Positions 1 through 29,106 of a stretch of DNA of 64,000 bases are shown here, piece after piece. Position 1 is the first letter of the stretch; each line of letters starts with the position of its first letter. Below the pieces are notes generated by a model. That model saw only the letters and a program-made list of their open reading frames with translations, was not told the DNA's origin and made no database searches. The stretch comes from Runella aurantiaca (lineage in GTDB: Bacteria > Bacteroidota > Bacteroidia > Cytophagales > Spirosomataceae), in NCBI RefSeq assembly GCF_003339505.1, contig NZ_QPIW01000003.1, positions 184,471 to 248,470 on the forward strand. The letters are read 5' to 3'. The position numbers were made by a program, and so were the translations under genes.

Positions 1-2669
1 GTACTGATATCACCCAGAGAATGGGTAAGCAGTACATCCAACTTACATTGCAGAAAAACTTCAAGGGTAAAGTCAGTATTGGTGCCATTTAGGTAGTAGC
101 CCGCAATATAAACCCTATCATAACTGCCTAAGGCAATGTCTCTCACAAGATATGGAGGCTCAAATAGTAGTTCTTCAGTATATCCTAGTGATGTTAGCAG
201 ATAAACCCCTTCTGTACCAAAACTATGGTCTAAAGTACCATCAGGCTTGAGGCGCATCAAAAATTCGGGATGGTAAATGAAGGAATTCTCACTGCTTCCG
301 CCTATCAACACATTGCCGTCCGGTTGGGCAATAACCGCAACGGGCTTGGTGGATACATTTGCCCCAAAGGACGTTGTAAATACGCCATCGCCCGAAAAAG
401 TGTTATCTATACTGCCGTCGGTATTGAACCGGGCTACCAAGGTTTGATTTGCTAAAATACCGGACAATATCAGCTTGTCGTTTGCCTGAACAGCGGCCTT
501 TATCCTCGTACTTTTACTTATTGCAACATTGGTCACTAATTTACCATCACCATCAAAAGTATTGTCTAAACTTCCGTTGGGATGTAAGCGATAGACCAGA
601 AAATGAGCACGGTCATCCTCAATTTCATCCATTTGAATAGACCCGCTCAAAACAATTTTATTGTTGGATAAAACGTGGATGTTGTATGCTCTTTCACTAC
701 AATTTAATGCTGCTCTCCGCTGATTGCTTTTTTTATTTTCAACACCACCAATACTTGTGTTGTCGAGACAACTGGTGGTCAAAATCTCCATTTTCCCATC
801 GGCGTCAAAAGCATTGTCCAAGCTCCCGTCGGTGGCATTGAGCCGAACCACAATTATCTTATTAACCGCATTTTGAATACTGTTACCCACCAACAGTATT
901 TTTCCGTCGGCCTGTTGAGTGATGCCGTACAAATAGTCTTCGCCCCCAATATTCATCATGACGCGCCCATTCGTCCCAAAAGTGTTGTCTAATGTTCCGT
1001 TGGCGTTTAATCTGACGACCACAAAATCCCGGTCGGTTCCATTGGAAATATGACCCGCCATTACGATTTTACCATCTGATTGTAACACCAGGCCATTGCC
1101 GTCAGGAACGTTGTCAATCACCGATTCAGCAAGGAGAAGTTTACCATCGCCGGAGAAAGTATCGTCTAAACGTCCAAAGCGCGTAAAGCGGGCAATGGCT
1201 ACGTAAGAGTTGGTCGTAACGGGGTCGTAGGCACTACCCACTTCAATGATTTTGTCGTCCGGCTGAACGACAATGTTTTGAGCACTTTCAATATATCCAT
1301 TCCCAAAAAAGGTGTAGATACGATTTTCCAGCGTTGCAAAACCATAAATGGAATGAATACGCGCCATGCAAAAATCCTGATTCGACCCGTTATCGGCCAT
1401 TCCTACAAGTACTATTTTTCCGTCGTTTTGCAGCGCCACGCCATATCCGTTGTCGTTTTCACCTTGTTCAAAAGCTATTTTCAGTTTGCCATCCGTCGAA
1501 AAAGTAGCGTTTAAATTACCAAAACGATCGTATTTCACTACGGCTACGTCGCTGTTGGCAGGTACAATGACACGCGTTCCGTCCAAAAGCACTATAATAG
1601 TCTCTTCCGTATGGCTCGACCCCACGGCTACAATGCTTCCGTCGGGAGAAAGGGTCACATCAAACGCAAGGTCATCTCCGGGGCCTACGGCGGTCGTTAA
1701 TTTACCATCGCCGCTAAACTGCGTATCCAAACTGCCGTTTGGATTGTACCTTATTAGGGCAAAGTCATTGTTTGAACCATTGGAGGAATAACCAGAAACG
1801 ACTATTTTTCCATCCGATTGGATAGCGAGCGCTTGCCCAAAATCATGACTCGTTCCAACAGGGGTGACCGCATAGCCATCTGCGTCAAAACCTGTATCCA
1901 AAGTGCCGTCAGGGTTGAGGCGGGCCGTTAAAAAGTCAAGGGTGTTCCCCCCAACCAAGGCATTATTACTGTTTCCTGCCACCACAATTTTACCATCGGT
2001 TTGGAGTTTTACCGATTTAGCTTCGCCTGCCGGGTAGTTGGTCATACTGTTGCCATAGAAGCCCATGTCTAAACTGCCGTCGGTATTGTATCTTCTGACC
2101 GCAATCTTTGGGTTGCTTATTCCTACTGCCACAATTTTGCCATCTGGCTGAATGGCCACATCATTAAATACATCCGAGCCATTTACACTTTCACGTACAA
2201 TGCCATCACCGCTGAATGTATTGTCTAAAGAGCCGTCTGTATTAAAGCGTAGCACCATAAACTCATAGTGATTAGGGTTGATGACAGAACGGGCAAAACC
2301 GACAACCACTATTTTATCATCCGACTGAAGGGCCACGGCCAGCCCTTGGGCCGTGCCACTTCCATCGGAGGCCGTTACCAATTGTGTCTTTTTGCCATTG
2401 CCCGCAAACGAATTGTCTAAAGTGCCGTTTTGAAGGTATTGGGCAATGAGCACCCGGTAAGCGTCGGTTTTGGCACCCACAACAATGAGTTTACCGGTCG
2501 AATTGATGGCTACATCATAAGCCGTTTCATTGGTTCCTGAAAAATCAGTAGTGACCTTCCCCGAAGTACTAAAAGGAATATCTAAAGCTCCCGACGATTG
2601 GGCTGCCGCCCCACGGGAAGCCATCAATAACAAGTAGGCAAATGCAAATGTCAAAACTGATTTTTTCAT
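1..2669 (-). CDS. delta-60 repeat domain secreted protein (5'-partial at window edge; N-terminus in window)
   Basis: ATG at 2667-2669 (reverse complement) gives MKKSVLTFAFAYLLLMASRGAAAQ signal peptide followed by repeated 'DGKIVVVG / NPDGSLDTxF' units. No stop-bounded minus ORF is listed for 1-2669, so the frame is open to position 1. Paralogous to the 10577-13381 gene. Confidence 0.7.
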   Translation of the reverse strand, partial: MKKSVLTFAFAYLLLMASRGAAAQSSGALDIPFSTSGKVTTDFSGTNETAYDVAINSTGKLIVVGAKTDAYRVLIAQYLQNGTLDNSFAGNGKKTQLVTASDGSGTAQGLAVALQSDDKIVVVGFARSVINPNHYEFMVLRFNTDGSLDNTFSGDGIVRESVNGSDVFNDVAIQPDGKIVAVGISNPKIAVRRYNTDGSLDMGFYGNSMTNYPAGEAKSVKLQTDGKIVVAGNSNNALVGGNTLDFLTARLNPDGTLDTGFDADGYAVTPVGTSHDFGQALAIQSDGKIVVSGYSSNGSNNDFALIRYNPNGSLDTQFSGDGKLTTAVGPGDDLAFDVTLSPDGSIVAVGSSHTEETIIVLLDGTRVIVPANSDVAVVKYDRFGNLNATFSTDGKLKIAFEQGENDNGYGVALQNDGKIVLVGMADNGSNQDFCMARIHSIYGFATLENRIYTFFGNGYIESAQNIVVQPDDKIIEVGSAYDPVTTNSYVAIARFTRFGRLDDTFSGDGKLLLAESVIDNVPDGNGLVLQSDGKIVMAGHISNGTDRDFVVVRLNANGTLDNTFGTNGRVMMNIGGEDYLYGITQQADGKILLVGNSIQNAVNKIIVVRLNATDGSLDNAFDADGKMEILTTSCLDNTSIGGVENKKSNQRRAALNCSERAYNIHVLSNNKIVLSGSIQMDEIEDDRAHFLVYRLHPNGSLDNTFDGDGKLVTNVAISKSTRIKAAVQANDKLILSGILANQTLVARFNTDGSIDNTFSGDGVFTTSFGANVSTKPVAVIAQPDGNVLIGGSSENSFIYHPEFLMRLKPDGTLDHSFGTEGVYLLTSLGYTEELLFEPPYLVRDIALGSYDRVYIAGYYLNGTNTDFTLEVFLQCKLDVLLTHSLGDIS

Positions 2670-2746
2670 GGTTTTGCTTTTAAATTGATTGCGGTTAACC
2701 TCTATATTAACATGCGTCGTAAATCATTCATTTTAAGCATTTTGTG

Positions 2747-5638
2747 CTAATTGCACCCGCCAATTTGAGCGGTAAACACCGCCCCAGTATCGGTTTTGAA
2801 TCCCGGGTTCAACTGTACATATTGGCTTGCCTGATAAATGACATTGGCCCCGCTGGGAATGGTATTAGGGCTTCCAGCAATTGAAATGACCGTCTCCGAA
2901 GCCAGTTGGTGGGTGGTGGCGGTTCCCGTAGGCGTAGCCGTAAACCCTTGCGGGCAGGGGGTGTACCGCCAGAGTTCAAAGCCGTGCTGTCCGTCATCGG
3001 CTACAAAGTATAGATTGCCTCCCATCTGCGTAAAATAGGGGGCAGTGGAAAATCCACTGTTATTGTCGGGGTTAAGGTCGGCAATCAGGACTGTACCGGC
3101 AGTAGTACCATTGCTTTTCCAAAGCTCCCGCCCGTGAAAACCGTCGGTTGCTGCAAAATAGGCCGTGCCACCAAAGTTGAAAAACCGGGTGGGATTGGAA
3201 CTGCTGCCTCCTGCCGCAATATCCTTGACCATCACCGTGCCGGCTGCAGTGCCATCACTTTTCCAGAATTCACGGCCGTTGGTCCCATCGCTTGCGGAGA
3301 AATAGAGGGTGTCTTTGATACTGACCAAACTCACAGCAAATGAGCTTCCCGTCGTATTGATGTCTTTGACCATCTCGGTTCCTGTCGCAGTGCCGTCACT
3401 TTTCCAAAGTTCTTCGCCATTAGTACCGTCATTGGCCTTAAAATACAATGTACCATTGATGTTCGTGAATGATCCCGGCGATGAGGGTGAGGTGCCGGAT
3501 CGAATATCTCTTACTAAAAAAATGGAAACTCCATCACTTTTAAAGAGTTCGATATCAGTAGCACTCGCATTAGGACCGGAAAAAAACAGGGTATTCCCAA
3601 TGGCGACGGGAGGTTCAATCTCATTCCAATCCATATTTATATCAGCTACTTTTACCGTCCCGGCGGTGGTCCCATCGCTTTTGTAGAGAGCGGGGCCCGT
3701 TGTAGTATAGGCAAAGAAAAATAAAGTCCCTGCAACGTTGGTAAGATATTTGGGCGCTCCGGGACCGGAATCGAGGTAAATATCTTTCACCATATCTGTT
3801 CCGCTCGCAGTACCGTCACTTTTCCACAATTCGGAACCGGCGGTATTGGTAGAAGCCCTAAAAAACAATGTCCCGTTCCATTCGGTTAGCTCTTCGGGAG
3901 AGGAAGAGTTTATCCCCAAGTTGATGTCTTTCACCAATACGGTTCCGGCAGCGGTGCCGTCGCTTCGCCAAAGTTCCCGGCCATGGATACCGTTTTCAGC
4001 AACAAAAAACAAGGTGTCATTGATATTGATAAGGTCGGTAGGTGAAGCGCTGAGGCTTCCAAAATTGAGGTCTTTTACCATGACTGTACCGGCAGAAGTG
4101 CCATCGCTTTTCCAAAGCTCTTCGCCGTTGATGCCATCATTTGCGGCGAAGAAAACTTTATTGCCCATCGTCACTACGTATTTGGGCTGAGCACTGACGG
4201 TATTGGCATTGGGCACTATCTTGCTCGTTCCGGGACCGGTGCCGTCGCTTTTCCAGAGTTCATTGATGGTGCTGTTGCTCCCATCTTGGGCCAGAAAGAT
4301 AAGGAATCCGGACAGGCTCACCGGTCCTTGTGGATAGCTGCTCCCGGCCCCGGCCCAAATGTCTTTGACTAAAGTTGTCCCTGCTGCCGACCCATTACTT
4401 TTCCAAAGTTCGGACCCATTGGTTCCATCATAGGCGGAAAAATAGAGCGTACTTCCTACCAATCTGAAAGAAGTAGGGTAACCGAAAGCCGCTCCACTGT
4501 TGATATCTTTAACCATCACCGTTCCCGCTGCAGTTCCGCTGCTTTTCCAGAGTTCCTGTCCGTTGGTTCCATCATTGGCTTCAAAATAAAAAACCAACGT
4601 GCTGGTATTGACGACAAAGGGCAGACCGTAATCAGTTATCCCACTTTCTGAGCCAGGATGTATATCTTTGACCAAGACGGTTCCGGCTCCTGTTCCATCA
4701 CTTTTCCAAAGTTCGCGACCGGCAGAGCCATTATCTGCGGTAAAATAAAGCGTCCCGTCTACATTTGTGAGTCTCTGAGGTGAAGGATCCGTCAAAGTTG
4801 CACTCGGAAAAATATCTCTGACCAATACCGTGCCGGCCGCAGTACCATCACTTTTCCAGAGTTCTCTTCCCTTTGTACCATTGTCAGCGGTAAAAAACAA
4901 AACATCCGTCGCAGCAACACCACCAAATGAACCGGCCCTGACAAGGGAGTTGGGATATGAGTGGGTAGTACCGGGATTGATGTCTTTGACCAATACAGTT
5001 CCCCCGGTAGTGCCATCGGTTTTCCACAATTCTCGACCATTGGCTGCATCAAAGGCCCCGAAATAGAGGATTCCCTGCACAATGGTAAAACTACTGGGAG
5101 CTGAATTGGCAGTTCCCGAATTGATATTTTTAATAATAACCGTTCCGGCAGCGGTGCCGTCGCTTTTCCAGAGTTCAAGCCCTTGCGAGGCAGTCATGGC
5201 CGCAAATACCAACTGCCCGTTGTAGGATACAAACCCCTGAGGTTCGGAACCAAGGCTGCCTGTATAAATATCTTTGACCATGACGGTACCGGCCGCGGTG
5301 CCGTCGCTTTTCCAAAGTTCTTCCCCATTGATGCCATCATTGGCGGTAAAGTAAAGTGTCCCGCTTACATTGATCAGGTTGAGAGGGTTAGAATCACCAA
5401 AGGCCGAAACGATGTGTTTGACCAATACCGTACCTGCTGCTGTTCCGTCGGTTTTCCACAGTTCAGAGGTACGTTTGACAAAATACATCTGTGAACCAAT
5501 GATCGCGGTGCCGTTATTTTCATCAACTTCAATTCCCGCCGCCACCGCATTGATGTCTTTGACTATTTGGAGGTTTTGGGCTTTGGGGATGAGGTATAAA
5601 AATTGCCAAATGAGCAATAAGAGAAATTGCTTTTTCAT
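2747..5638 (-). CDS. ELWxxDGT-repeat surface/secreted protein (963 aa)
   Basis: N-terminal signal peptide (MKKQFLLLLIWQFLYLIPKAQ). About 17 repeats of 'ELWKSDGTAAGTVLVKDI..' (ELWxxDGT repeat family). Conserved C-terminal tail '...LNPGFKTDTGAVFTAQIGGCN'. Confidence 0.85.
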   Translation of the reverse strand: MKKQFLLLLIWQFLYLIPKAQNLQIVKDINAVAAGIEVDENNGTAIIGSQMYFVKRTSELWKTDGTAAGTVLVKHIVSAFGDSNPLNLINVSGTLYFTANDGINGEELWKSDGTAAGTVMVKDIYTGSLGSEPQGFVSYNGQLVFAAMTASQGLELWKSDGTAAGTVIIKNINSGTANSAPSSFTIVQGILYFGAFDAANGRELWKTDGTTGGTVLVKDINPGTTHSYPNSLVRAGSFGGVAATDVLFFTADNGTKGRELWKSDGTAAGTVLVRDIFPSATLTDPSPQRLTNVDGTLYFTADNGSAGRELWKSDGTGAGTVLVKDIHPGSESGITDYGLPFVVNTSTLVFYFEANDGTNGQELWKSSGTAAGTVMVKDINSGAAFGYPTSFRLVGSTLYFSAYDGTNGSELWKSNGSAAGTTLVKDIWAGAGSSYPQGPVSLSGFLIFLAQDGSNSTINELWKSDGTGPGTSKIVPNANTVSAQPKYVVTMGNKVFFAANDGINGEELWKSDGTSAGTVMVKDLNFGSLSASPTDLININDTLFFVAENGIHGRELWRSDGTAAGTVLVKDINLGINSSSPEELTEWNGTLFFRASTNTAGSELWKSDGTASGTDMVKDIYLDSGPGAPKYLTNVAGTLFFFAYTTTGPALYKSDGTTAGTVKVADINMDWNEIEPPVAIGNTLFFSGPNASATDIELFKSDGVSIFLVRDIRSGTSPSSPGSFTNINGTLYFKANDGTNGEELWKSDGTATGTEMVKDINTTGSSFAVSLVSIKDTLYFSASDGTNGREFWKSDGTAAGTVMVKDIAAGGSSSNPTRFFNFGGTAYFAATDGFHGRELWKSNGTTAGTVLIADLNPDNNSGFSTAPYFTQMGGNLYFVADDGQHGFELWRYTPCPQGFTATPTGTATTHQLASETVISIAGSPNTIPSGANVIYQASQYVQLNPGFKTDTGAVFTAQIGGCN

Positions 5639-5714
5639 AAGTAATGCAGGGTTAAGAAAACTAAGAAGTTAAATCAAACAAGAGGCCTAAACTGCTCATT
5701 TTAATGGCTTTATA

Positions 5715-8564
5715 CTAGTTGCACCCATCAATTTTAGCAACAAACACCGCCCCAGTATCGGTTTTGAACCCTGGATTTAGCTGAACATATTTGCTTGCCT
5801 GATAAATGACATTGGCCCCGCTGGGAATGGTATTGGGGCTACCAGCAATTGAAATGACCGTCTCCGAAGCAAGTTGGTGAGTGGTAACGGTCCCCGTAGG
5901 GGTAGCCGTAAACCCTTGCGGGCATGGGGTGTACTTCCAGAGTTCAAAGCCATGCTGTCCGTCATCGGCTACAAAGTAGAGGGTGTTTCCAATAGAAGCA
6001 AAATGGGAGGTATAATAGGGCGCGCCGGGAAATCCGTTGTTATTGTCAGGGTTGAGGTCGGCAATCAGGACCGTACCGGCGGTGGTGCCATTGCTTTTCC
6101 ATAGCTCCCGGCCGTGAAGACCATCCGTTGCTGCAAAGTAGGCCATGCCACCCATATTGTAAATACCGTTAATCTCAGAATTACCTGCATAAATACCCTT
6201 TACTAAAGCAGTAGTAGCGGCACTACCGTTGCTTTTCCATAGACCCATGCCGTTAACACCATCATCTGCTTCAAAGAAAAGTGTACCATTAATATCGCAA
6301 AAACTATTGGGGCGTGAACTGCCTGTACTATTGATATCCGCAGCCAAAACGGTCCCTTCGACAGTCCCATCCGTTTTCCAAAGTTCCTGACCTTCAGGAA
6401 ACCTGTTTGCAGAAAAAAACAGGGTATTATTTACTTTGGTTAATCCAGAACAATAGAATTGATATCCCACATCTAATACTGTGGTTGTTATACCGTCGCT
6501 TTTAACAATTAACCAATAATTGTTTGAAACCTTCTCATAAGTAAAAAACAGACTATTGTCCATGACAGCCACCGAACCGATTCTCACATAAGGTCCAATA
6601 TTATCTACTTCTATAGTACCTGCGGCTGTACCATCACTTTTACAAAGAATGGTCTCCGGAGGCAAATCTCTTTCAATAAAGAAAAAGAGGGTGCCGTTTA
6701 CATTGGTAAGCCTGGTGGGGGTCGACGAATCAGTACCTGCGTTTAGGTCTTTTACCAATACAGTACCTGCTGATGTGCCATCTGTTTTCCAAAGTTCTCT
6801 CCCTGAATCACTTTTTGAAGCAACAAAAAAAAGGCGGTTTCCTATTCCCTCAAAATCAAAAGGAGAAGAATTACTGCTGCCCAGTTCAATGTCTTTTACC
6901 ATCACCGTGCCGGCATTCGTACCGTCAGACTTCCAAAGCTCTATGCCATTGGTTGAATTTGTGGCCGAAAAAAAGAGTGTTCCATTAAAATTGACCAGTG
7001 AGGACGGCGACGAACTTGAGCTGCCTACATTGATATCCTTTACCAATACAGTTCCTTCAGCCGTTCCATCAGATTTCCAAAGTTCCGTTCCGTTGATACC
7101 GTCGTTGGCTGAGAAGTAAATTAGTTGGCCAATACGCACTAGTTCTCGGGGTTCCCCTCCAAAGGTATGGCCTGGCATAATGATTTTATGCGTACCAAGC
7201 TCAGTACCATCACTTATCCAAAATTCTTGCTCTATCCCATCAGAAGCGCCAAAAATCAAACTTCCGGACAAATTGGCAAAAAAACCGGTGCTGGCATCAT
7301 TGCTGCCTGCCCTAATATCTTTTACCAATACCGTTCCTGCGGCTGAACCATCACTTTTCCATAATTCACGACCATGCACATCGTCATCAGCTGTAAAATA
7401 AAGGGTTGAACCAATATTCAATAAATTTGAGGGACTGCCGCTACCATTTGTATTGATGTCCTTTACCATGACTGTTCCTGCCGCGGTACCATTACTTTTC
7501 CAAAGTTCCCAATCGTTTGTGCCATCGTTTGCTCTGAAATAATACGTATTACCCACAACCCAAAAAACTGAACTAAATCCGGATTCACTGCCAACAAAAA
7601 TATCTTTTACCAATACTGTGTTGGCCGCAGTACCGCCTGATTTCCAAAGTTCTCGCCCAACGTCTGCACTGCTGGCTGAGAAGTAAAGCACTCCATCAAC
7701 ATTTGCCATCTCAGTGGGTGATGAAGATGCATCACCCACATATATATCTTCAACCATCACTGTCCCTGCTGTTGTACCATCGCTTTTCCACAATTCAAGG
7801 CCATGAGTTCCATCATTGGCCCTAAAAAATAACACACCGTTATTTACCAAATAACTACTCACATTGGTTAGTTTATCGGGGGTTGAAGAGTCATCTCCCG
7901 GATTAATGTCTTTCACTAAAACCGTACCGCCTGTTGTACCGTCCGTTTTCCAAAGTTCTTCTCCATTGGCGGTAGTTTGTGCTGAAAAATAAAGAACACC
8001 TTTGACCGCTTTGAACCCGTGAGGATACGAATTTGCACTGCCTGTCTCGATGTCTTTGACAATGGCAGTACCCGAATAAGTGCCGTCAGACTTCCAAATT
8101 TCAATCCCTTTTGCTTCATTTTTAGCCGAAAAAATCAGTTCACCATTGTATGCTGTAAAGTCTTCTGGGTTTGAATCGGAACTGCCGACAAAAATATCTT
8201 TCACCAAGATAGTACCGGCGGCCGTCCCATCAGTTTTCCAAAGTTCTTTGCCCGAAACGCCATCGTTCGCACTAAAAAAAACCGTTCCTGCTACATTAGT
8301 TAAATTATCAATTCTCGCATCCCCGCTGGCAGAAATAATATGTTTGACCAATACCGTTCCGATTGAAGTACCGTCAGTTTTCCAGATTTCTGAAGGCTCT
8401 TTTACAAAATATAAAATTGAGCCAACTACTGCCTGTTTGCCTACATTAGGCATCCCCGCCGCCACCGCATTGATGTCTTTGACCATTTGAGGATTTTGTG
8501 CAAGTACCAATTGCGCCATGCCAAACAATAGGCAGAATGTAAAGAGGTAGGGTTGTTTTTTCAT
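5715..8564 (-). CDS. ELWxxDGT-repeat surface/secreted protein, tandem paralog (about 950 aa)
   Basis: The ORF track's longest form (to 8699) begins with non-signal junk. The likely true start is MKKQPYLFTFCLLFGMAQLVLAQ, with ATG at 8562-8564. Same ELWKSDGT repeats; the C-terminal ~70 aa are nearly identical to the upstream paralog. Confidence 0.8.
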   Translation of the reverse strand: MKKQPYLFTFCLLFGMAQLVLAQNPQMVKDINAVAAGMPNVGKQAVVGSILYFVKEPSEIWKTDGTSIGTVLVKHIISASGDARIDNLTNVAGTVFFSANDGVSGKELWKTDGTAAGTILVKDIFVGSSDSNPEDFTAYNGELIFSAKNEAKGIEIWKSDGTYSGTAIVKDIETGSANSYPHGFKAVKGVLYFSAQTTANGEELWKTDGTTGGTVLVKDINPGDDSSTPDKLTNVSSYLVNNGVLFFRANDGTHGLELWKSDGTTAGTVMVEDIYVGDASSSPTEMANVDGVLYFSASSADVGRELWKSGGTAANTVLVKDIFVGSESGFSSVFWVVGNTYYFRANDGTNDWELWKSNGTAAGTVMVKDINTNGSGSPSNLLNIGSTLYFTADDDVHGRELWKSDGSAAGTVLVKDIRAGSNDASTGFFANLSGSLIFGASDGIEQEFWISDGTELGTHKIIMPGHTFGGEPRELVRIGQLIYFSANDGINGTELWKSDGTAEGTVLVKDINVGSSSSSPSSLVNFNGTLFFSATNSTNGIELWKSDGTNAGTVMVKDIELGSSNSSPFDFEGIGNRLFFVASKSDSGRELWKTDGTSAGTVLVKDLNAGTDSSTPTRLTNVNGTLFFFIERDLPPETILCKSDGTAAGTIEVDNIGPYVRIGSVAVMDNSLFFTYEKVSNNYWLIVKSDGITTTVLDVGYQFYCSGLTKVNNTLFFSANRFPEGQELWKTDGTVEGTVLAADINSTGSSRPNSFCDINGTLFFEADDGVNGMGLWKSNGSAATTALVKGIYAGNSEINGIYNMGGMAYFAATDGLHGRELWKSNGTTAGTVLIADLNPDNNNGFPGAPYYTSHFASIGNTLYFVADDGQHGFELWKYTPCPQGFTATPTGTVTTHQLASETVISIAGSPNTIPSGANVIYQASKYVQLNPGFKTDTGAVFVAKIDGCN

Positions 8565-8580
8565 CTTTTTGGATTCGGAT

Positions 8581-9897
8581 TTAAAAATCATTATCAAGTT
8601 CAGGCAGGATATTTCCATCTTCAGACTGTACAATGGCCGTGGGCTTGATTCCCAATACAGTAACGCGGTGATTGGCCAACGAAGAGTTTTCCTCATCATC
8701 GGTCAGTATAGTAGAAAGGGTGTATTTAAGCGTACCCCTCGAAGCGCGGAAGGGCTTACTGTAACTCCAATCGCTGATCCAGATCCCTATCTTTCGGACA
8801 TGATGGTCACCGTCAAGTGCTTCATAGTGCAAATCCCAGCCCGATAAGATGGGGATAGCGTTTTCGTAGGGAATATTAGAAATCGTAAACTCTTTAGTCA
8901 CCACCAGAGGACTGCCACTGGTAACAAACGACTCCCACCACCCCTCATCATCCAAAGGTGTAATGAGAAAAGGCGGATGGATTACCCCTAAATCCTTACC
9001 GCCTATCCCCGTAACCATCTCTCCAAAGTAGTATCCGTTTTTTTCTATATTGGGCTCCCAGCGCTCTTGGTTGTCTTTGAAAATAACTTGGGTACTCCAA
9101 CTCAATACCCCTGCTGAGTCAAAACGGCTGGAATTTTGGAGCAAAGGGTTGGTACTTTCGGGGTAGTTATCGTAGATTTTGTTCTGTAAGATTCTTTCAC
9201 TTCCAACGATATTATAAGACAGTTGGAGCAAGTGATGGTCTTCTTTTTGGGCTACCCGGAAAAAAAAACCGCGCGGAACCACCCCCGCCGTTACCCTTCG
9301 TTTGAAAACATTATTTTGGAGGTGTCCCGCAATGGGATACATGTTGTAAGTGGAAGTTCCTGAAGCACAGTTTTCGTCGTCATCTACCGCCAGATTTATC
9401 TTGGCCTCGTTCCAAGCAATTACAGTATAGTGGTAGCAAAAATTGTAAGCATCATCAAAATTATAATCTCCGAGCGCTCCAATAGCAGCCCAGGTCACCT
9501 CTTTCCTATTTTGATTAACGGTTAGGTTGATGTGACCAATTCCTACCCCAAGCGTTCGTACGTGGTGATCGTCGGATTCATACTCCAACTTCCAGCCATT
9601 CAAAAAGACGGTAGCATGCGTAGCCCAACGAGGTATTCGACGACTTCCTTGCAAGCTAATTTCATTTTCACTGATTTTTTGGGTCAATTTCCCGCAGGCC
9701 GAGCCATGATAAACTACGATTTGACTATCTTTTTCAAAAGTTTTTTTATCACTGAAATCGTAGGGTTCTACATAGCTGAGACCTGATGCCTCACCTCCAG
9801 AAATACAAAGTCCACCCCAACCTCTGGTATCAAATTCACAACTCCAAACCAAAGGCAATACAAAGGCAAACAAAACAGCAGCGGAGGAGCGTTTCAT
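8581..9897 (-). CDS. hypothetical lipoprotein with internally duplicated domain
   Basis: Lipobox-like LPLVWSC after a signal peptide. Two related segments (LNGWKLEYESDDHHVRTLGVGIGH / LSGWDLHYEALDGDHHVRKIGIW). Contains a T9 tract that encodes FFF. Confidence 0.6.
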   Translation of the reverse strand: MKRSSAAVLFAFVLPLVWSCEFDTRGWGGLCISGGEASGLSYVEPYDFSDKKTFEKDSQIVVYHGSACGKLTQKISENEISLQGSRRIPRWATHATVFLNGWKLEYESDDHHVRTLGVGIGHINLTVNQNRKEVTWAAIGALGDYNFDDAYNFCYHYTVIAWNEAKINLAVDDDENCASGTSTYNMYPIAGHLQNNVFKRRVTAGVVPRGFFFRVAQKEDHHLLQLSYNIVGSERILQNKIYDNYPESTNPLLQNSSRFDSAGVLSWSTQVIFKDNQERWEPNIEKNGYYFGEMVTGIGGKDLGVIHPPFLITPLDDEGWWESFVTSGSPLVVTKEFTISNIPYENAIPILSGWDLHYEALDGDHHVRKIGIWISDWSYSKPFRASRGTLKYTLSTILTDDEENSSLANHRVTVLGIKPTAIVQSEDGNILPELDNDF

Positions 9898-10451
9898 GGC
9901 AGTATGGCGTTTAGACTATCTACTGACACCCGTGATTTGGCATTCCAGAAAGCCGATACGTTGGCTATTTGCCAAGCTCCGTCGTGCTTTTCCATGAGGC
10001 GGGTTTCCTGACTGATGATGTAGTGGGTTTTTGCGCTGTTGGCGTTGTATTGTTTCCAGAGCAAATACGCTACATTCTCGCCGTAAAATTTCACCTGTGG
10101 TTTTTCCCGTTTTACGACCGGGTGTACGACATTTTTGCCATTTTTGTAATACTTCTCAATCCATTCTTTGCCTTGCGCGTTGATTTTTTCCCACCCAATG
10201 GCGGCATCATAGGTGCCATCGTCGTTGTTCCAAGCCTGCATTGCGTAGGGCTGATGCACCCAATGTTTGGCCCAACAATCATAATTTCCATCAAAAAAGC
10301 ATTTAGTTTCTCCTTCAATAACCTGTAGGATGGCGGCGGTTTCTTTGCCTTCATCAAAAGTGGTGGTGGCGGTTTGGGTTTGTGTATCGGCCTGACGGCA
10401 AGCCATGGGCAATACGAAAAGCAGTGTGCTGCAAATAAACAAGTGCTTCAT
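9894..10451 (-). CDS. hypothetical lipoprotein (NTF2/SnoaL-like size and composition)
   Basis: Signal peptide plus Cys (LPMACRQ). Its stop overlaps the downstream gene start by 4 bp (ATGA), suggesting an operon. Confidence 0.55.
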   Translation of the reverse strand: MKHLFICSTLLFVLPMACRQADTQTQTATTTFDEGKETAAILQVIEGETKCFFDGNYDCWAKHWVHQPYAMQAWNNDDGTYDAAIGWEKINAQGKEWIEKYYKNGKNVVHPVVKREKPQVKFYGENVAYLLWKQYNANSAKTHYIISQETRLMEKHDGAWQIANVSAFWNAKSRVSVDSLNAILP

Positions 10452-10576
10452 TTCAATACGATTTTGTTTAGTGTATTACATCAAGAAATTGGCCTTTTCG
10501 GACGAAGTGAATTTTTTAAATTCTAATGGGTACCGGTCTCCATTTTCCGGGGCCAATAAACCTTCAAATCAGTACT

Positions 10577-13381
10577 TTACGGATCGTTTGGGTTGAGGGT
10601 ATAAGAACAGACAAGCCCCATTTCGGCTTTAAAAACCGCTCCCGGCTCCACCTTAAAGCCCGGTTTTAATTCAATAAAATCCTTTGCTTTGCAGGCTACA
10701 TTTGCCGTTCCCAAGACCCAATTGGTTGCCTGAATCGCTTTGCCAGTTTCGGGGTTATTGATGCGATTGAGGCTGATGTCATCGTTGGGATGGGTCAACG
10801 AAACTATTTGAGGGTTGAGTTTACATTGGAGAAAAATAGAAAGGGTCATGTCGAAGTTGGTGCCATTGTCGTACGAACCTGCAACATACACCCGGTCGTA
10901 ATTGCCCAACGCCATAGCGCCGAAACGGTCGTCTTCGTATCCTAAATTAGGGAAGGTATAAGCACCATTGAATCCAAAATTGAGATCAGTCGTCCCGTTG
11001 GCATTGACCCGCAGGAGGGTTTTACTCCAAGTATTAAGGCCAAACACATCGCCTCCCACTAGGATTTTACCACTCGCCAATACCTTGATTGCATAAGCCC
11101 TGTTATCTGCTGGATAGCTAGTAGAAGTATAGATACCGTCGCCCGAGAACGTATTGTCGAGGCTACCGTCTACGTTATAGCGAACGAGCACCATCACCCC
11201 CGAAACCAGTGCAAGTCGTCCTCCTATGATGAGTTTACCGTCGGGCTGAATGGCCGAACACCAACCCAACGCCTGTTCCATCCCAAAATCAGTCACTGCT
11301 TTTCCATCCCCATCAAAGGTATTATCCAGACTTCCGTCGGCATTGAGCCGATAGGCTACAAAGTCTTGATTAAGTTCGTAGCCGCTGATGATGATCTTGT
11401 TGTTAAAAATATGGACCGAATTGATTTCATCGGTCCCGATGGTTCCCCCCAATTCTACCTTGCCGTCGGTATCGAATGAGACATCCAATGTACCGTTTGG
11501 CAAGAGCCTTGCCACCGTAGATTTATAAATACCTATGCCACCGGTAGAGATACTGTAGCCCGCCAACACGATTTTGCCGTCCGGTTGCAGGGCCATTGCT
11601 TTGCAATAGTCTAACCCGAAAATATTGACCAGCACTTTTCCATTGGTTCCGAAAGTATTGTCCGTCGTACCGTCAGGCAACAACCTTATCACCGCAAAGT
11701 CACTATCGGTGCCATTGTATGCTTGCCCCGCCACTACGATTTTTCCATCAGGCTGAAGGGCGATGGCATTGGCGTATGCCTCATTGGGCAGGATGGTACT
11801 GCTAATGATGAGTTTTCCATCTCCCGAGAATGTTTCATCCAAAGCTCCGCTCCTTAGATACCTCGCAATGGCAAATTGTTTAGCAGCGCTTGAAGTGGTA
11901 TAACCAGCCACCAGTATTTTTTCATCCGGCTGAACGACCATACAGCGCGCCTGCTCTGCTTCATCGCCAAAAGAGAGATACAACCTGTTTTCAAGGGTGT
12001 AAAAACGGTAAAAGCCATGCAAACGACAGATGCCAAAGTCTTCGTTGGTGCCATTATGAACCGAGCCGGCCACGATGATTTTGCCGTCATTTTGCAAAAG
12101 CATTGTATTCCCTTTGTCATGCTTTCCTTCTGTAAAAGGGATGGTGCGAATACCATCTCCTGAAAATAAGGTGTTTAAGTCCCCATCGGATTGATACACC
12201 AGCACCACAAAGTCGTCGTTGGCGGGAACATCAATAATAGCGCGGGTACCATCCAACAGAATTACTTCATAGCTATACGCCGGCGTTCGGGTGGTGCCGC
12301 CAACGACAATGTCGCCGTTGGGTTGGAGGGTTATCGCATTGCCCCGGTCGTCGCCGGGATTGATAGAGGTCGTTTGTTTACCAGTGTCGTTGAAGTTTAA
12401 ATCCAAACTGCCATTCTCGTTGTAGCGTACCAAGGCTACGTCATCGCTTGTACCGTTCCAGATTTTACCTGCCAAAACAATCTTTCCATCCTCCTGAACA
12501 GCTAGGTCGTAGGCATAGTCGTCGGTAGAGTTGCCAATGTCTGTGATGGCCTTGCCGTCGGTATCGAAGGTATTATCTAAAGTCCCGTTGGCATTCAGAC
12601 GCATCACCCCAAAATCTCTATCGGGTGCCATAAACTCCCACGTGTATCCTCCTACCACTATTTTACCGTCAGGTTGCAAAGCAACTCCCCGAGCTACGCC
12701 TTGAAAAACGCCGAAAACCGTACCTGCACTGCCAAAATCTGCATCTAATGTACCCGTACTCAAATAACGCCGTACCACAAACTGACTGTTTTGGGAGCCC
12801 GCCACCACTATTTTTCCATCCGTTTGGACTGCAACATCATAATAAAAGTCGTTCAAACTGGCATGGGTACGGATTGACCCCGTGCCGTTGAACGTATTGT
12901 CTATGTTGCCGTTGGGCAGATACCTCAAAATGACGAAATCGTACAATTTATTGGGGTCCGAAGTATCGTGTACCTGCCCGACCACCACTATTTTTCCGTC
13001 AGACTGGATGGCCACGGCATTGGCCTGTGCAGTAAGCCCTGAGTAACTGAAAACCACTTTACCATCAGTTGAGAAAGTATTGTCTAAAGTGCCGTTAGGC
13101 AGTAAACGTATGGTAGCGAGTCCACCGTTGCTGCTTCCAACCACTACTATTTTTCCGTCTGATTGCAGGGCTGAACCCAACGCAAATTCGATGCCGTTGC
13201 TGGCCCCCGGAAAGGTGATGGAGTTTTTTCCATTCGTGGAAAAATCAACGTCCAATGCGCCGTTAACCTGAGCTTGCACCGTTTGAAAGTAAAAGAGAAG
13301 CCAGCAAAGAGGAATCATTTGATGCCTAATTGTACGAAGGAGGCACTGCGCATAATAAGCAGGAGTGATAAAGGTTTTCAT
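10577..13381 (-). CDS. delta-60 repeat domain protein (934 aa; alternative start at 13318 possible)
   Basis: More than 15 repeats of 'LxPDGxLDxxFxxDGKxxxxxG' / 'DGKIVVAG', as in delta-60/β-propeller repeat proteins. Signal peptide ...FYFQTVQAQ. C-terminal tail 'DFIELKPGFKVEPGAVFKAEM' resembles the ELW protein tails. Confidence 0.8.
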   Translation of the reverse strand: MKTFITPAYYAQCLLRTIRHQMIPLCWLLFYFQTVQAQVNGALDVDFSTNGKNSITFPGASNGIEFALGSALQSDGKIVVVGSSNGGLATIRLLPNGTLDNTFSTDGKVVFSYSGLTAQANAVAIQSDGKIVVVGQVHDTSDPNKLYDFVILRYLPNGNIDNTFNGTGSIRTHASLNDFYYDVAVQTDGKIVVAGSQNSQFVVRRYLSTGTLDADFGSAGTVFGVFQGVARGVALQPDGKIVVGGYTWEFMAPDRDFGVMRLNANGTLDNTFDTDGKAITDIGNSTDDYAYDLAVQEDGKIVLAGKIWNGTSDDVALVRYNENGSLDLNFNDTGKQTTSINPGDDRGNAITLQPNGDIVVGGTTRTPAYSYEVILLDGTRAIIDVPANDDFVVLVYQSDGDLNTLFSGDGIRTIPFTEGKHDKGNTMLLQNDGKIIVAGSVHNGTNEDFGICRLHGFYRFYTLENRLYLSFGDEAEQARCMVVQPDEKILVAGYTTSSAAKQFAIARYLRSGALDETFSGDGKLIISSTILPNEAYANAIALQPDGKIVVAGQAYNGTDSDFAVIRLLPDGTTDNTFGTNGKVLVNIFGLDYCKAMALQPDGKIVLAGYSISTGGIGIYKSTVARLLPNGTLDVSFDTDGKVELGGTIGTDEINSVHIFNNKIIISGYELNQDFVAYRLNADGSLDNTFDGDGKAVTDFGMEQALGWCSAIQPDGKLIIGGRLALVSGVMVLVRYNVDGSLDNTFSGDGIYTSTSYPADNRAYAIKVLASGKILVGGDVFGLNTWSKTLLRVNANGTTDLNFGFNGAYTFPNLGYEDDRFGAMALGNYDRVYVAGSYDNGTNFDMTLSIFLQCKLNPQIVSLTHPNDDISLNRINNPETGKAIQATNWVLGTANVACKAKDFIELKPGFKVEPGAVFKAEMGLVCSYTLNPNDP

Positions 13382-13675
13382 GGTAAAGTGGTTTTATGGA
13401 TACTTCGGATTTATGACATTTACCTATGCTTGATTTGTGCAAGAATAGGGCAACGGCATTTTGAAAGCATGACTGTAAGCCATCCATTAAATGTTTCAAA
13501 GACGGTTAGGAAAACCAGTAAGCGACCGCTGAAAATGCCAACTTTACAGGGTATTGCGTGAAGGATTTGGTTAGGACAAAAGTCGGAAAGTTTAGAATAG
13601 GGGGAAATAACTAATAATAGGTATTTTTATACCTATTTCTCGGTATAAACAACAGATTTTGGGCCTGTTGTGTGT

Positions 13676-14317
13676 TTAAACAAGCTGATGTTGTACCGCG
13701 TATTTGATCAATGCAAATGAAGAATTGACGCCGAGTTTTCGGAAAATATTCCGACGATGGGTTTCAATGGTGAAATAGCTCAAATTAAGTTCCCGAGCCA
13801 TTTCAAGCCCGGTCATTTCTTGCGCAATTAGTCGGATGATTTCTATTTCGCGGCGAGTGAGGGCTTCGTCGTGTGGGAGCATTTTTTCCGCCTGCGTCAG
13901 TGGCTGTGTCAAGGTATCCATGACCGTTTCCGAAAAAAACGTATGTCCTTGCGACAAGCTTACGATGGCGCTTTGAAGTTCGGCTTTGGTGGCTTTTTTC
14001 GATAAATATCCTTTTACACCCGCTTGAATAGCGGTTCGGATTCCTTCGGCATCTTCACGGGTGGTAAGCATGAGTACTTTCAGGTGCGGGTGGGTTCTAC
14101 GCAGAGCAAGGGTCAATTGAACACCGTCCATCTGCGGCATAAAGTAGTCGCAGATGAGCACTTCAACCTCGCAAAAAGACAGCTTACTGAGGGCTTCCTC
14201 TCCACCAAAGGCCGTTCCCACCAACTCCACCCCCTCAATTGCCCCTAGTAGCATGGTCATACTCTCGATAAAAATGGTATGGTCGTCTACCAGAAATATT
14301 TTAATGGGGGAAGCCAT
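13676..14317 (-). CDS. two-component response regulator, NarL/LuxR family (REC + HTH_LuxR)
   Basis: IKIFLVDDH...D...LVICDYFMP (receiver motifs). C-terminal 'LTRREIEIIRLIAQEMTGLEMARELNLSYFTIETHRRNIFRKLG' is a LuxR-type HTH. Confidence 0.9.
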   Translation of the reverse strand: MASPIKIFLVDDHTIFIESMTMLLGAIEGVELVGTAFGGEEALSKLSFCEVEVLICDYFMPQMDGVQLTLALRRTHPHLKVLMLTTREDAEGIRTAIQAGVKGYLSKKATKAELQSAIVSLSQGHTFFSETVMDTLTQPLTQAEKMLPHDEALTRREIEIIRLIAQEMTGLEMARELNLSYFTIETHRRNIFRKLGVNSSFALIKYAVQHQLV

Positions 14318-14392
14318 GGTGTGTAGAAGTCATGATTTATGTTTTAATTAATAAAAAAACTATATTGGTTACAATACATCAAGGGAAAAAAT

Positions 14393-16282
14393 ATGAGAGC
14401 ATTTACCAAACGGTCGGTAGTACTGTCTATCATTATACTGTTTTCTGTGGTTACTTACGGGCAGTATTTTAGGGTCAGTTATTCCGTTGATAGTCTCAAA
14501 AAAGTATTATTAGCCGTTGAAAGCAAATCCGCGCCCACCCAAAAAAAAGAAATACTTACGCTCAATACCTTAATCGCAACTGCATTCAACAAAGATGCTC
14601 AGTTTGACAGCAGTTTGAGTTTGTTGAGAAAAATTCTCCCTGAATTGCAGGCTCAAAATATGCTTAATGAGATTGCCGAAGCTCATTTCCATATCGGGTG
14701 GGCACTGCAAAAAAGAGAGTTGTACTTTGAGGCCGTTAAATCTTTTGAGGAAGCCATCGTGGCGGCCCAAAAAGCAAAAAACGACAGTTTGCTTGCCATC
14801 AGTCATCACTGGGCAGGGATAAGCTATAGCGACCAAAAAGTCTATCCTAAAAGCCTTTGGCATTATAAAAAAGAGCTTGAAATTTGTAAAAAAGCAAAAC
14901 TTAAATTTCAACATGCCGATTGCCTAAACTCCATTGGACTCCACTATTTTGGGTTTGAAAAAATTGATTCAGCATTTTATTTTTTCGATGTATGTCGCAA
15001 AATTTCCGAGAAGAATCAGTTTGATATACTCCTCCCGATTTCTTACAAAAATGTAGGAAAATGCTACTGGGCGCTTGGCAATGAACAAAAGGGAACGGAC
15101 TTTATTTATCGCTCAATAGAACTTTTTCTGAATCACAAAAACCCTAGAATTCGATATTTGTCTATGTACAGCTACATTGAGCTGGCTCGCTATTATGCCA
15201 ACAAAAAAAACTATAATTTGTCAAACCAAAATGCTTTGAAAGGTTTAAAAATCAACGCATTGGCCAATTTTACCGATTTGCAGCAAGATTTTTCATTCCT
15301 TCTATATAAAAATCACAAAGCCACAAAACAAACTTTAGAAGCCCTGCAATATTTAGAAATATACCAAAAAGCTTCCGAAAAAATCAACCAAAATTATTTG
15401 GCACAACAGCACGCAGCATTGGATGAACGAGTGCAAAATGAGCAACAAAAAAACCAGATATACGTACTCAATCAAGAAAAAATAGCCAAACAACGAGAAA
15501 GAAACTGGTTAATAGGAGGGTTAACTGTTGCAGGAATGTTCCTATTTGTCATTGGCAAACTCTACCAGACAAATAGAAAACAAAAAAAAGTAATCCAAAA
15601 AGCTAATGAACAACTGGAAGAAAAAGTAAAACTGCGCACTGCTGAACTCCAAAGGGCATTAGACGAAATAAAACAAGCCATGCTCAAAGGTCAAAAATTG
15701 GAACGAACCCGCGTAGCTGCCGAGTTGCACGACAACCTAGGAAGTTTGCTTTCGGCCATTAGCATCAGTATGGAAGTGGTCGAAATTGGTGAACTATCTC
15801 TCCACGAGCAGCAAATTTTTGCGGGAATCCAACAACAAATAAATGCGGCTTATCACCATGTACGCCTGCTTGCTCATAATCTTCAGCCTGCTGAGCTGGA
15901 GAGAGAAGGATTAAAAAAGGCCTTGGAAATTTTTGCGGCTAAAATTAACCAAAGCAAATACTTTCACCTGACGCTTGATACCACTGCCCTTGTTCCTCTC
16001 TCTAAAGATTTGGAGTTTACATTGTACTCTATTTGCTTAGAGCTCATCAATAATACCCTTAAACATGCCCAAGCTACCCAAGTACGAATCGCTTTTGATC
16101 AACAAACGGCTCACCGCTGGCAGATGATTGTAGCCGATAATGGCAAAGGTATGATGCCCAACACAAAAGAGGGGTTTGGTATCCAAAACATCAGAAATCG
16201 TCTCGAACAAATAGGAGCAACTCTCCATATAATTCAAGAAAAGGGATTGACCTTTTTGATTGATTTTAAGACGGATGAATAA
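14393..16282 (+). CDS. sensor histidine kinase, TPR-repeat periplasmic/sensor region + HisKA_3 + HATPase_c
   Basis: N-terminal signal/TM, TPR-like repeats, internal TM (WLIGGLTVAGMFLFVIG), coiled coil, H-box 'RVAAELHDNLGSLLSAI', and a C-terminal ATPase (NGKGM...GFGIQNIRNR). Divergent from the NarL-type regulator. Confidence 0.85.
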   Translation: MRAFTKRSVVLSIIILFSVVTYGQYFRVSYSVDSLKKVLLAVESKSAPTQKKEILTLNTLIATAFNKDAQFDSSLSLLRKILPELQAQNMLNEIAEAHFHIGWALQKRELYFEAVKSFEEAIVAAQKAKNDSLLAISHHWAGISYSDQKVYPKSLWHYKKELEICKKAKLKFQHADCLNSIGLHYFGFEKIDSAFYFFDVCRKISEKNQFDILLPISYKNVGKCYWALGNEQKGTDFIYRSIELFLNHKNPRIRYLSMYSYIELARYYANKKNYNLSNQNALKGLKINALANFTDLQQDFSFLLYKNHKATKQTLEALQYLEIYQKASEKINQNYLAQQHAALDERVQNEQQKNQIYVLNQEKIAKQRERNWLIGGLTVAGMFLFVIGKLYQTNRKQKKVIQKANEQLEEKVKLRTAELQRALDEIKQAMLKGQKLERTRVAAELHDNLGSLLSAISISMEVVEIGELSLHEQQIFAGIQQQINAAYHHVRLLAHNLQPAELEREGLKKALEIFAAKINQSKYFHLTLDTTALVPLSKDLEFTLYSICLELINNTLKHAQATQVRIAFDQQTAHRWQMIVADNGKGMMPNTKEGFGIQNIRNRLEQIGATLHIIQEKGLTFLIDFKTDE

Positions 16283-28221: not shown

Positions 28222-29103
28222 TTAAAAATCCCCGTAATTCACCTGCAAACACGGCAAACCCAGCTCCAAGCGCCACAAATCCACGACTTGGTTGCGGTCG
28301 TCGAGCACAAATTGCACGAAATATTGCCCTTTTACGTGCGCTTCGTAAAGCTCTTTTTTGACAACAGCATCTTTGCGCATATCTCCCGTCGTACGCATAT
28401 AGAGCGCGTGATAAGGGATATTGTTGTATTTCAGCCAATTGAGCGTCGGCGTCCGCGCTTTCTCTTCTCGACCCGACATCAAAATAATTTTGACACCCAA
28501 AGTGTAATAATTTTTGATGATTTCGGCAATGGGTTGGTTGAGATCATCCAATTCGCACGACATGGTATCGTAAGGGCTTCGGTTTCTCAAAATAGCCAAC
28601 GTGCCGTCCAAATCACACAGGATAGCAGGCGGCAAAGTTGGGTCTTGGGGCTGATAATGCGGCCCGCGCTCATCGCCCAACACGTGGGTTTTGTACATAC
28701 GTAAAATCACGTCGCGGCCTACTTTTTTCTCCCGTACTTCATCCCGTGCTAAGCTTTCTTCCAATGAAGTGTTCATTTCCCGAACCTCTATCTGCACCTG
28801 TTCTCCCGTTTCTTTGCAGTATTTCTGCACCACCTGACGAATGCGCTCCACTGGGCGGTCTGATAAATTTGTATCATCAATGATGACGTGTTTTCCATCG
28901 CGCAGAGCTTCCACTAACATCAAATCACGGACTCGCTCTACAAACTTTTCGTTGTGTTTTGAATGTTCGCTGTTGTCGAGCATGGCGCGGAGTTCGTCTT
29001 TGTTCAGCCGTTTGTACATGCCCTTGTTCTCGTCCAACAGTTGTCGGGCGAGAGTCGATTTTCCGCTGGCGGGCAGTCCCCGCAGTAAGATTACTTTTTT
29101 CAT
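28222..29103 (-). CDS. polynucleotide 5'-kinase/3'-phosphatase, T4 Pnkp-like (N-terminal P-loop kinase + C-terminal HAD/DxDGT phosphatase)
   Basis: Walker A 'LLRGLPASGKSTLA' at the N-terminus. C-terminal 'ILCDLDGTLA ... LMSGR ... RKD ... LDDRNQVV' gives HAD motifs I-IV. Domain order matches phage T4 polynucleotide kinase. Confidence 0.8.
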   Translation of the reverse strand: MKKVILLRGLPASGKSTLARQLLDENKGMYKRLNKDELRAMLDNSEHSKHNEKFVERVRDLMLVEALRDGKHVIIDDTNLSDRPVERIRQVVQKYCKETGEQVQIEVREMNTSLEESLARDEVREKKVGRDVILRMYKTHVLGDERGPHYQPQDPTLPPAILCDLDGTLAILRNRSPYDTMSCELDDLNQPIAEIIKNYYTLGVKIILMSGREEKARTPTLNWLKYNNIPYHALYMRTTGDMRKDAVVKKELYEAHVKGQYFVQFVLDDRNQVVDLWRLELGLPCLQVNYGDF

Positions 29104-29106
29104 TTT

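Follow-up and report, generated by a model that had tools for sequence, protein, structure and literature searches.

Near the left end of a 64,000-nucleotide stretch of Runella aurantiaca contig NZ_QPIW01000003.1 (hereafter the window), neighboring genes encode large repeat proteins of two otherwise unrelated beta-propeller families that share a short C-terminal tail containing the stretch L-N-P-G-F...G-x-V-F-x-A-x-I. A preliminary description of this DNA regarded the tail as an unnamed conserved module that might be a sorting, anchoring, or processing tag for a six-gene secretome cluster. The locus raises two questions: what the tail is, and whether it acts as a signal or forms part of the mature protein. 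The tail is an already catalogued domain, not a new one.

Identity of the shared C-terminal tail

Two ELWxxDGT proteins, p1 (window positions 2747 to 5638; 963 amino acids) and p2 (5715 to 8564), and two delta-60 proteins, p3 (10577 to 13381; 934 amino acids) and p0 (1 to 2669, with its 3' end beyond the left window edge), are all encoded on the reverse strand, and each combines a signal peptide, propeller repeats, and the module. About 18 ELWxxDGT repeats are present in p1, which matches TIGR04534 with 1010.6 bits (p2, 905.8 bits), and p3 has 12 delta-60/DUF5122 repeats (TIGR02608, 539.8 bits; PF17164) and is identical to WP_114460192.1 of R. aurantiaca. The open reading frame (ORF) at the left edge (3 to 2723, reverse strand) is 100% identical over 889 amino acids to WP_114460188.1 of the same species (P0191 in our homologue set). 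As the latter protein carries the module at residues 872 to 943 and ends 'KIGGHCYYSQNPSDLLP', the cluster contains four module proteins, not three. All four signal peptides end in AQ (PKAQ in p1). The longest ORF of p2 spans 5715 to 8699 on the reverse strand, and the probable true start is at 8564 (MKKQPYLF...). The p2 signal peptide 'MKKQPYLFTFCLLFGMAQLVLAQ' starts at the ATG at 8564, not at the first ATG at 8699, and the 45 codons 5' of 8564 overlap the end of a 438-amino-acid ORF (8581 to 9897) and are probably untranslated.

The tails lie where the preliminary description placed them and read exactly as quoted there ('...QYVQLNPGFKTDTGAVFTAQIGGCN' in p1, '...KYVQLNPGFKTDTGAVFVAKIDGCN' in p2, and '...DFIELKPGFKVEPGAVFKAEMGLVCSYTLNPNDP' in p3), the ORFs are likewise as stated, and the repeat families were confirmed by NCBIfam. 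These tails are almost certainly members of the NCBIfam family NF045639 (NF045639.1, GCX_COOH), with product name "3-coathanger stack domain-containing protein." Scores of 64.0 bits (p1; E = 7.8e-18), 61.6 bits (p2; E = 4.4e-17), and 47.0 bits (p3; E = 1.7e-12) exceed the curated cut-off of 26, and the RefSeq product name of both delta-60 proteins in the window already follows this model. Such values establish a real portable module common to otherwise unrelated beta-propeller proteins, as previously proposed. They also overturn the statement that the module is unnamed, because the tails match a known, named family, an outcome that the preliminary description had itself listed as refuting, yet NF045639 is not a variant of a type IX secretion system (T9SS) domain. 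No Pfam model covers the tail.

Module copy 1 comprises the final 72 residues of p1 (892 to 963; window 2750 to 2965, reverse strand), including Cys895 and Cys962, and terminates in GGCN-COOH; the NF045639 match spans its residues 925 to 963 (2750 to 2866). Copy 2 forms the final 72 residues of p2 (5718 to 5933, reverse strand) and terminates in DGCN-COOH. In p3, copy 3 occupies approximately residues 851 to 926 (10604 to 10831, reverse strand), with Cys853 and Cys925 and an NF045639 match at residues 879 to 925, and is followed by a 9-residue C-terminal extension, SYTLNPNDP (10580 to 10606, reverse strand). Copy 4, on p0, is visible at its start ('LQCKLDVLLTHSLGDIS'; 3 to 53, reverse strand), the remainder lying off the window. 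Tail identity is 93% between p1 and p2 and 31% between p1 and p3. A six-frame scan of the window with the tail hidden Markov model (HMM) found copies 1 to 3 and no others, the next best match having E = 1.9.

The Gly-Cys-Xaa-COOH ending, a pattern inferred from the family short name, is present in p1 and p2, and p3 and P0191 depart from it; across the family it is common, not universal. Extensions after the terminal cysteine are alike in the two delta-60 proteins (CSYTLNPNDP in p3 and 'CYYSQNPSDLLP' at residues 944 to 954 of P0191) and are conserved in a close Runella relative (CSYTVNPGDT and 'CYYSQNPSDLIP'). The ELWxxDGT proteins p1 and p2 end one residue past this cysteine.

Domain limits and the conserved cysteine pair

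An exhaustive HMMER search of 1.84 billion cluster representatives with a profile of the three tails, a check proposed in the preliminary description, retrieved 1046 proteins at E ≤ 1e-3. Scanning reference genomes for the pattern identified 33 other module loci, which belong nearly all to Bacteroidota (Runella, Emticicia, Jiulongibacter, Saprospiraceae, Chitinophagales, Flavobacterium, Bacteroidales, and Aureispira). The sole locus not labelled Bacteroidota (L016; CAYXOS010000241.1), a very short (3.2-kb) contig of a metagenome-assembled genome (MAG) binned as Sedimenticola, may be mis-binned.

The C-terminal cysteine is present in 129 of 131 strong homologues, and in 110 of these 129 a second cysteine lies 55 to 85 residues upstream (mode, 69 to 70), with almost no cysteine between the two; many of the proteins that deviate are fragments truncated at the N terminus. 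Across a 60-sequence alignment only the two cysteines and the Leu of L-N-P-G-F are invariant, and conservation of at least 90% is reached by Ala, Gly, Phe, and Phe, residues of the kinds that fill cores or form turns. Given the spacing of the cysteine pair and this alignment, the conserved unit is approximately 70 amino acids long, from Cys to Cys, compared with the 49 positions of the curated model. The window tails differ from NF045639 in nothing essential, p3 and P0191 having 9 to 11 extra residues after the cysteine. The preliminary description had noted a Cys-containing segment ahead of the motif, and this can now be sharpened to a pair of cysteines about 69 to 70 residues apart. A third cysteine of p3, C897, is absent from the close relative, and the conserved pair in p3 is therefore C853 and C925. 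As the pair is equally conserved in non-terminal forms of the module, it belongs to the domain itself rather than to a tag.

Word-indexed homologue searches gave no match with the 72-residue tail, which was too short a query, and, with the last 200 residues of p1, returned at least 120 ELWxxDGT fragments, none of those listed having the tail. The 60-sequence module alignment returned 29 short proteins or fragments that held no architecture information and served as alignment rows for structure prediction. One strong match to the three-sequence profile (P0128; nine stretches) was confirmed neither by a refined profile nor by NCBIfam and was treated as a false positive representing another repeat.

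Predicted fold

From 28 aligned sequences, AlphaFold2 modelled the p1 tail as all beta, with six strands in three pairs and a period of approximately 22 residues (mean predicted local distance difference test score [pLDDT], 67.8; 75 to 81 over the conserved half). The p3 tail model has the same strand pattern at low confidence (pLDDT, 56.0). The module is thus predicted, with moderate confidence, to form a three-rung beta-solenoid, and three stacked beta-arch rungs would fit what the name "3-coathanger stack" suggests. A Foldseek comparison with the PDB gave no significant match, all E-values being >4; the structural neighbors, none of them significant, were mostly beta-helical adhesins, ice-binding proteins, and polysaccharide-active enzymes. 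Unlike right-handed beta-helix autotransporter and two-partner-secretion adhesins and beta-solenoid ice-binding proteins, the module would have only three rungs and a probable end-to-end disulfide, and it has no detectable sequence relationship to them in a profile search of PDB sequences (nothing at E < 0.8).

Position of the module in host proteins

Passengers of the module are many and unrelated (250 to 1800 amino acids). Signal-peptide-like N termini were found in 81 of 109 full-length hosts, compared with 8 of 109 in an internal-segment control, and the hosts are accordingly predicted to be exported. Module positions were counted in the best 150 of the 1046 representatives, in 149 of which the refined profile re-found the module. 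It is internal in 13 of these 149.

A genuine T9SS type A C-terminal domain (CTD) followed the module in 8 of 8 proteins tested, in which about 100 to 150 residues lie beyond it (TIGR04183, 31.9 to 53.1 bits; cut-off, 23), and the module precedes such a sorting domain in Flavobacterium, Chitinophagales, and Bacteroidales. In Emticicia (locus L010) it stands ahead of a PQQ-dependent dehydrogenase, in P0203 it lies between Big_9 and a GH5 cellulase, and in P0142 it is internal and follows Laminin_G_3. About 10 of the best matches are proteins of approximately 350 amino acids with three tandem Cys-less copies. P0122, with 108 bits to NF045639 in three stretches, typifies proteins in which an N terminus with a weak, sub-threshold NCBIfam match to anti-sigma factors is joined to one transmembrane helix and a row of three copies. 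Concatenation of the unit is thus possible, as is its use in proteins anchored in a membrane. Three tandem Cys-less copies ('ITLKPGFHAKAG...') were seen in P0122, P0129, P0135, P0145, P0170, P0190, and P0194 (approximately 350 to 380 amino acids).

Placed as it is ahead of true sorting domains, between catalytic domains, and in tandem, the module behaves as a portable structural domain of proteins outside the cytoplasm and not as an obligatory terminal signal. These placements disfavor the sorting, anchoring, or processing tag of the preliminary description for the family as a whole, in which an extreme C-terminal position is not obligatory; such a position is the rule within the Cytophagales only, where a lineage-specific role is considered below.

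Probable structural role and alternatives

The module is probably structural and not a signal, namely, an end-piece or spacer of exported Bacteroidota proteins. Each self-contained unit of approximately 70 residues would form three stacked beta-rungs, a mini beta-solenoid, with the L-N-P-G-F...G-x-V-F-x-A-x-I stretch supplying a tight turn and core residues. The two end cysteines are probably disulfide bonded, which would staple the unit shut after inner-membrane crossing. Most likely it would serve as a stable structural cap or spacer where the mature passenger ends, and not as the secretion signal itself. A linker and a T9SS type A sorting domain come after it in most orders and would provide export; in the Cytophagales, including the Runella window, the chain ends one to ten residues past the second cysteine.

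Several observations weigh against this structural reading. Lineage comparison of the 33 loci and the window covered 19 module ORFs from Cytophagales (Runella, Emticicia, Jiulongibacter, and "Spirosomataceae" MAGs, NCBI placing Emticicia and Jiulongibacter in the Leadbetterellaceae) and 23 from other taxa. In the Cytophagales, 18 of 19 end 1 to 9 residues past the second cysteine and none of the 19 has a recognizable C-terminal T9SS type A domain. A purely structural module would leave these large signal-peptide-bearing propeller proteins without a known route across the outer membrane. Tag-like features also appear among the best matches, where the module lies within 12 residues of the C terminus in 136 of 149 and the protein ends exactly GGCN in 56 of 149; with GGCN at the end of two of the three query sequences, however, the ranking favors proteins that resemble the queries. 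Confidence in the predicted fold is moderate for p1 and low for p3, and literature searches for the coathanger stack domain and for ELWxxDGT found no relevant paper or experiment.

The 23 module ORFs of other taxa present a different picture. Twelve continue into a type A CTD (called with a local profile from eight confirmed examples), five continue into an extension of approximately 105 to 117 amino acids, and in six the module is terminal or near-terminal. The extensions occur in L017 (6196 to 6546), L025 (3665 to 3997), L028 (6073 to 6405), and L033 (6199 to 6513), which belong to Saprospiraceae and Aureispira and share the motif Y-x-K-R-[IF]-R-T-K-K-L, and also in L018. NCBIfam and Pfam searches did not recognize the extensions, with a sub-threshold Por_Secre_tail match in L018 only, and they could represent a divergent or unmodelled C-terminal sorting domain.

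A binding or adhesion unit is a rather unlikely alternative. One flat face of the mini-solenoid would then recognize a partner protein, a glycan, or some component of the cell surface and hold the passenger at a surface or in a complex. Such a function would be consistent with the beta-helical adhesins, ice-binding proteins, and polysaccharide-active enzymes among the structural neighbors, which were not significant, and with hosts that include the GH5 cellulase, the Laminin_G_3 lectin-like protein, and the propeller repeat proteins. A place beside the cell-proximal end of T9SS cargo would also suit attachment.

It is unlikely that the terminal form in the Cytophagales is a C-terminal sorting or anchoring signal, i.e., a new T9SS CTD class or an element of another export or attachment system. 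Known T9SS CTDs are immunoglobulin (Ig)-like beta-sandwiches that are necessary and sufficient for T9SS-dependent export and are removed by PorU. Like type A CTDs (TIGR04183/PF18962), the module is found in Bacteroidota toward the C terminus of exported proteins whose passengers vary widely, is of comparable length (approximately 70 to 80 amino acids), and has numerous paralogous carriers in each genome. The C-terminal region of ChiA of Flavobacterium johnsoniae sets a precedent for CTDs that differ from both type A and type B. The terminal-only architecture in the Cytophagales, together with the lack of a T9SS domain, leaves room for a lineage-specific tag role. In addition, p1 to p3 have signal peptides and no T9SS type A, type B (TIGR04131), or type C (NF033708) CTD at E ≤ 0.01, several other loci have two or three adjacent module genes, and the curators' short name GCX_COOH mirrors the terminal Gly-Cys-Xaa. 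T9SS and gliding genes have been reported in the related Cytophagales Aquirufa (PMC10821818) and Dyadobacter (PMC12584681); for Spirosomataceae, a search for type A cargo on record yielded nothing informative.

The same comparison reveals differences from sorting domains. The module has no sequence match to type A CTDs, the models of which do pick up such domains beyond the module in other proteins, and its fold, modelled with moderate confidence, resembles beta-solenoids rather than Ig-like sandwiches. It co-occurs upstream of a type A CTD in one polypeptide (in all eight proteins tested and in several orders), can be internal, as in the Emticicia dehydrogenase, P0203, and P0142, and forms tandem arrays after a transmembrane helix. 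The cysteine pair is as well conserved where the module is not terminal, and no conserved partner gene was found beside it in the comparison with the 33 other loci. The Runella propeller proteins may instead remain periplasmic, a location that the PQQ-dehydrogenase and anti-sigma-like hosts make conceivable for the module. Recognition of the terminal module by an export or attachment system in Runella is correspondingly improbable. More doubtful still is the specific proposal that the Cytophagales GCX-COOH module (Runella, Emticicia, and Jiulongibacter) took over the role of T9SS CTDs, as a fourth, structurally unrelated (beta-solenoid) class of outer-membrane export or surface-attachment signal for large propeller-repeat proteins in which no other signal is recognizable.

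PGF-CTERM, PEP-CTERM, and LPXTG signals consist of a motif, a transmembrane helix, and a basic cluster. The module shares with them a short conserved motif near the C terminus, and its PGF superficially recalls PGF-CTERM, but the window proteins end 1 to 10 polar residues past the cysteine with no hydrophobic segment. NCBIfam searches of p1 to p3 gave no PEP-CTERM, LPXTG, or PGF-CTERM match, and the earlier judgment that the tail is not T9SS type A or B, PEP-CTERM, or LPXTG holds for NCBIfam and Pfam at E ≤ 0.01. Finally, a chance or low-complexity resemblance, for which only the shortness of the motif speaks, is already refuted by the curated-model E-values, the 1046 homologues, and the conserved cysteine spacing.

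Genomic context and cluster dynamics

Two ORFs for predicted lipoproteins, orf438 (8581 to 9897; 438 amino acids) and orf185 (9894 to 10451), lie between p2 and p3. They were considered as dedicated partners of the module, in the way that PorP/SprF accompany type B CTDs, and rejected. No homologue of either occurs at the 33 other module loci, and they are therefore not conserved partners. The six-gene secretome cluster of the preliminary description is thus upheld for four genes, which carry the module, and not for these two.

A LuxR-type response regulator (13676 to 14317, reverse strand) and a TPR/HisKA_3 histidine kinase (14393 to 16282, forward strand) lie next to the cluster. They are not part of the module but are conserved neighbors of module clusters in the Cytophagales, such a pair lying directly beside module genes in Emticicia (L002, 1265 to 4483; L003, 1963 to 4507) and Jiulongibacter (L031, 7551 to 9071) and in the same arrangement in the close Runella relative (L034, 1675 to 4277). 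The response regulators in Runella, Emticicia, and Jiulongibacter are 31 to 44% identical. As synteny is conserved, regulation of the module genes by this two-component system is suggested, and it is a candidate regulator.

Paralogues within the cluster have diverged unevenly. Identity between p1 and p2 is 55% over the protein bodies and 80 to 95% over the last ~130 residues, and their nucleotide identity is approximately 86 to 89% over the last 216 to 300 nucleotides (~89% over 216; window 2747 to 3150 versus 5715 to 6120). This 3' tract resembles the outcome of gene conversion reaching from the final blades through the tail. Between the delta-60 paralogues the tail is no more similar than the body (43% each). 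The locus of a relative at 87 to 90% nucleotide identity (L034, Logan SRR4244063), reached via P0297, a cluster-mate of P0191, lacks p2. An internal deletion in p1 leaves a remnant ORF of 50 amino acids that is essentially the tail, and beyond the p0 homologue comes another ELWxxDGT gene, the product of which ends SGGCN; L035 has the same organization (coordinates in L034 of the rearranged p1 remnant and ELWxxDGT regions, 9387 to 9981 and 12940 to 15789). The cluster of module genes gains, loses, and rearranges paralogues.

A Pfam scan of the 20 ORFs between 14.4 and 44.7 kb, ORFs beyond 44.7 kb being unscanned, found ordinary genes and no secretion machinery. These include a polynucleotide kinase-phosphatase (AAA_33 and PNKP HAD domains) adjoining a T4 Rnl1-type RNA ligase (28222 to 30177), likely an RNA-repair pair, followed by a DUF4143 AAA ATPase (30210 to 31364). 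DabA (PF10070, 744 bits) is encoded beside a proton-antiporter-like subunit gene (37197 to 41569), probably as a DabAB pair for inorganic-carbon uptake.

Implications

The main outcome is that an annotation question is cleared up, the tail being a catalogued domain. For curators and T9SS researchers it may be worth recording that the unit is approximately 70 residues long with a cysteine at each end, rather than the 49 positions modelled, that it ends the protein in the Cytophagales but precedes a T9SS type A domain in other orders, and that a conserved LuxR-type two-component system lies beside the Cytophagales clusters. The terminal-only architecture in the Cytophagales is the one lead worth keeping: if the terminal form were indeed an export or anchoring signal, it would represent a new class of cargo for type IX or other secretion in environmental Bacteroidota.

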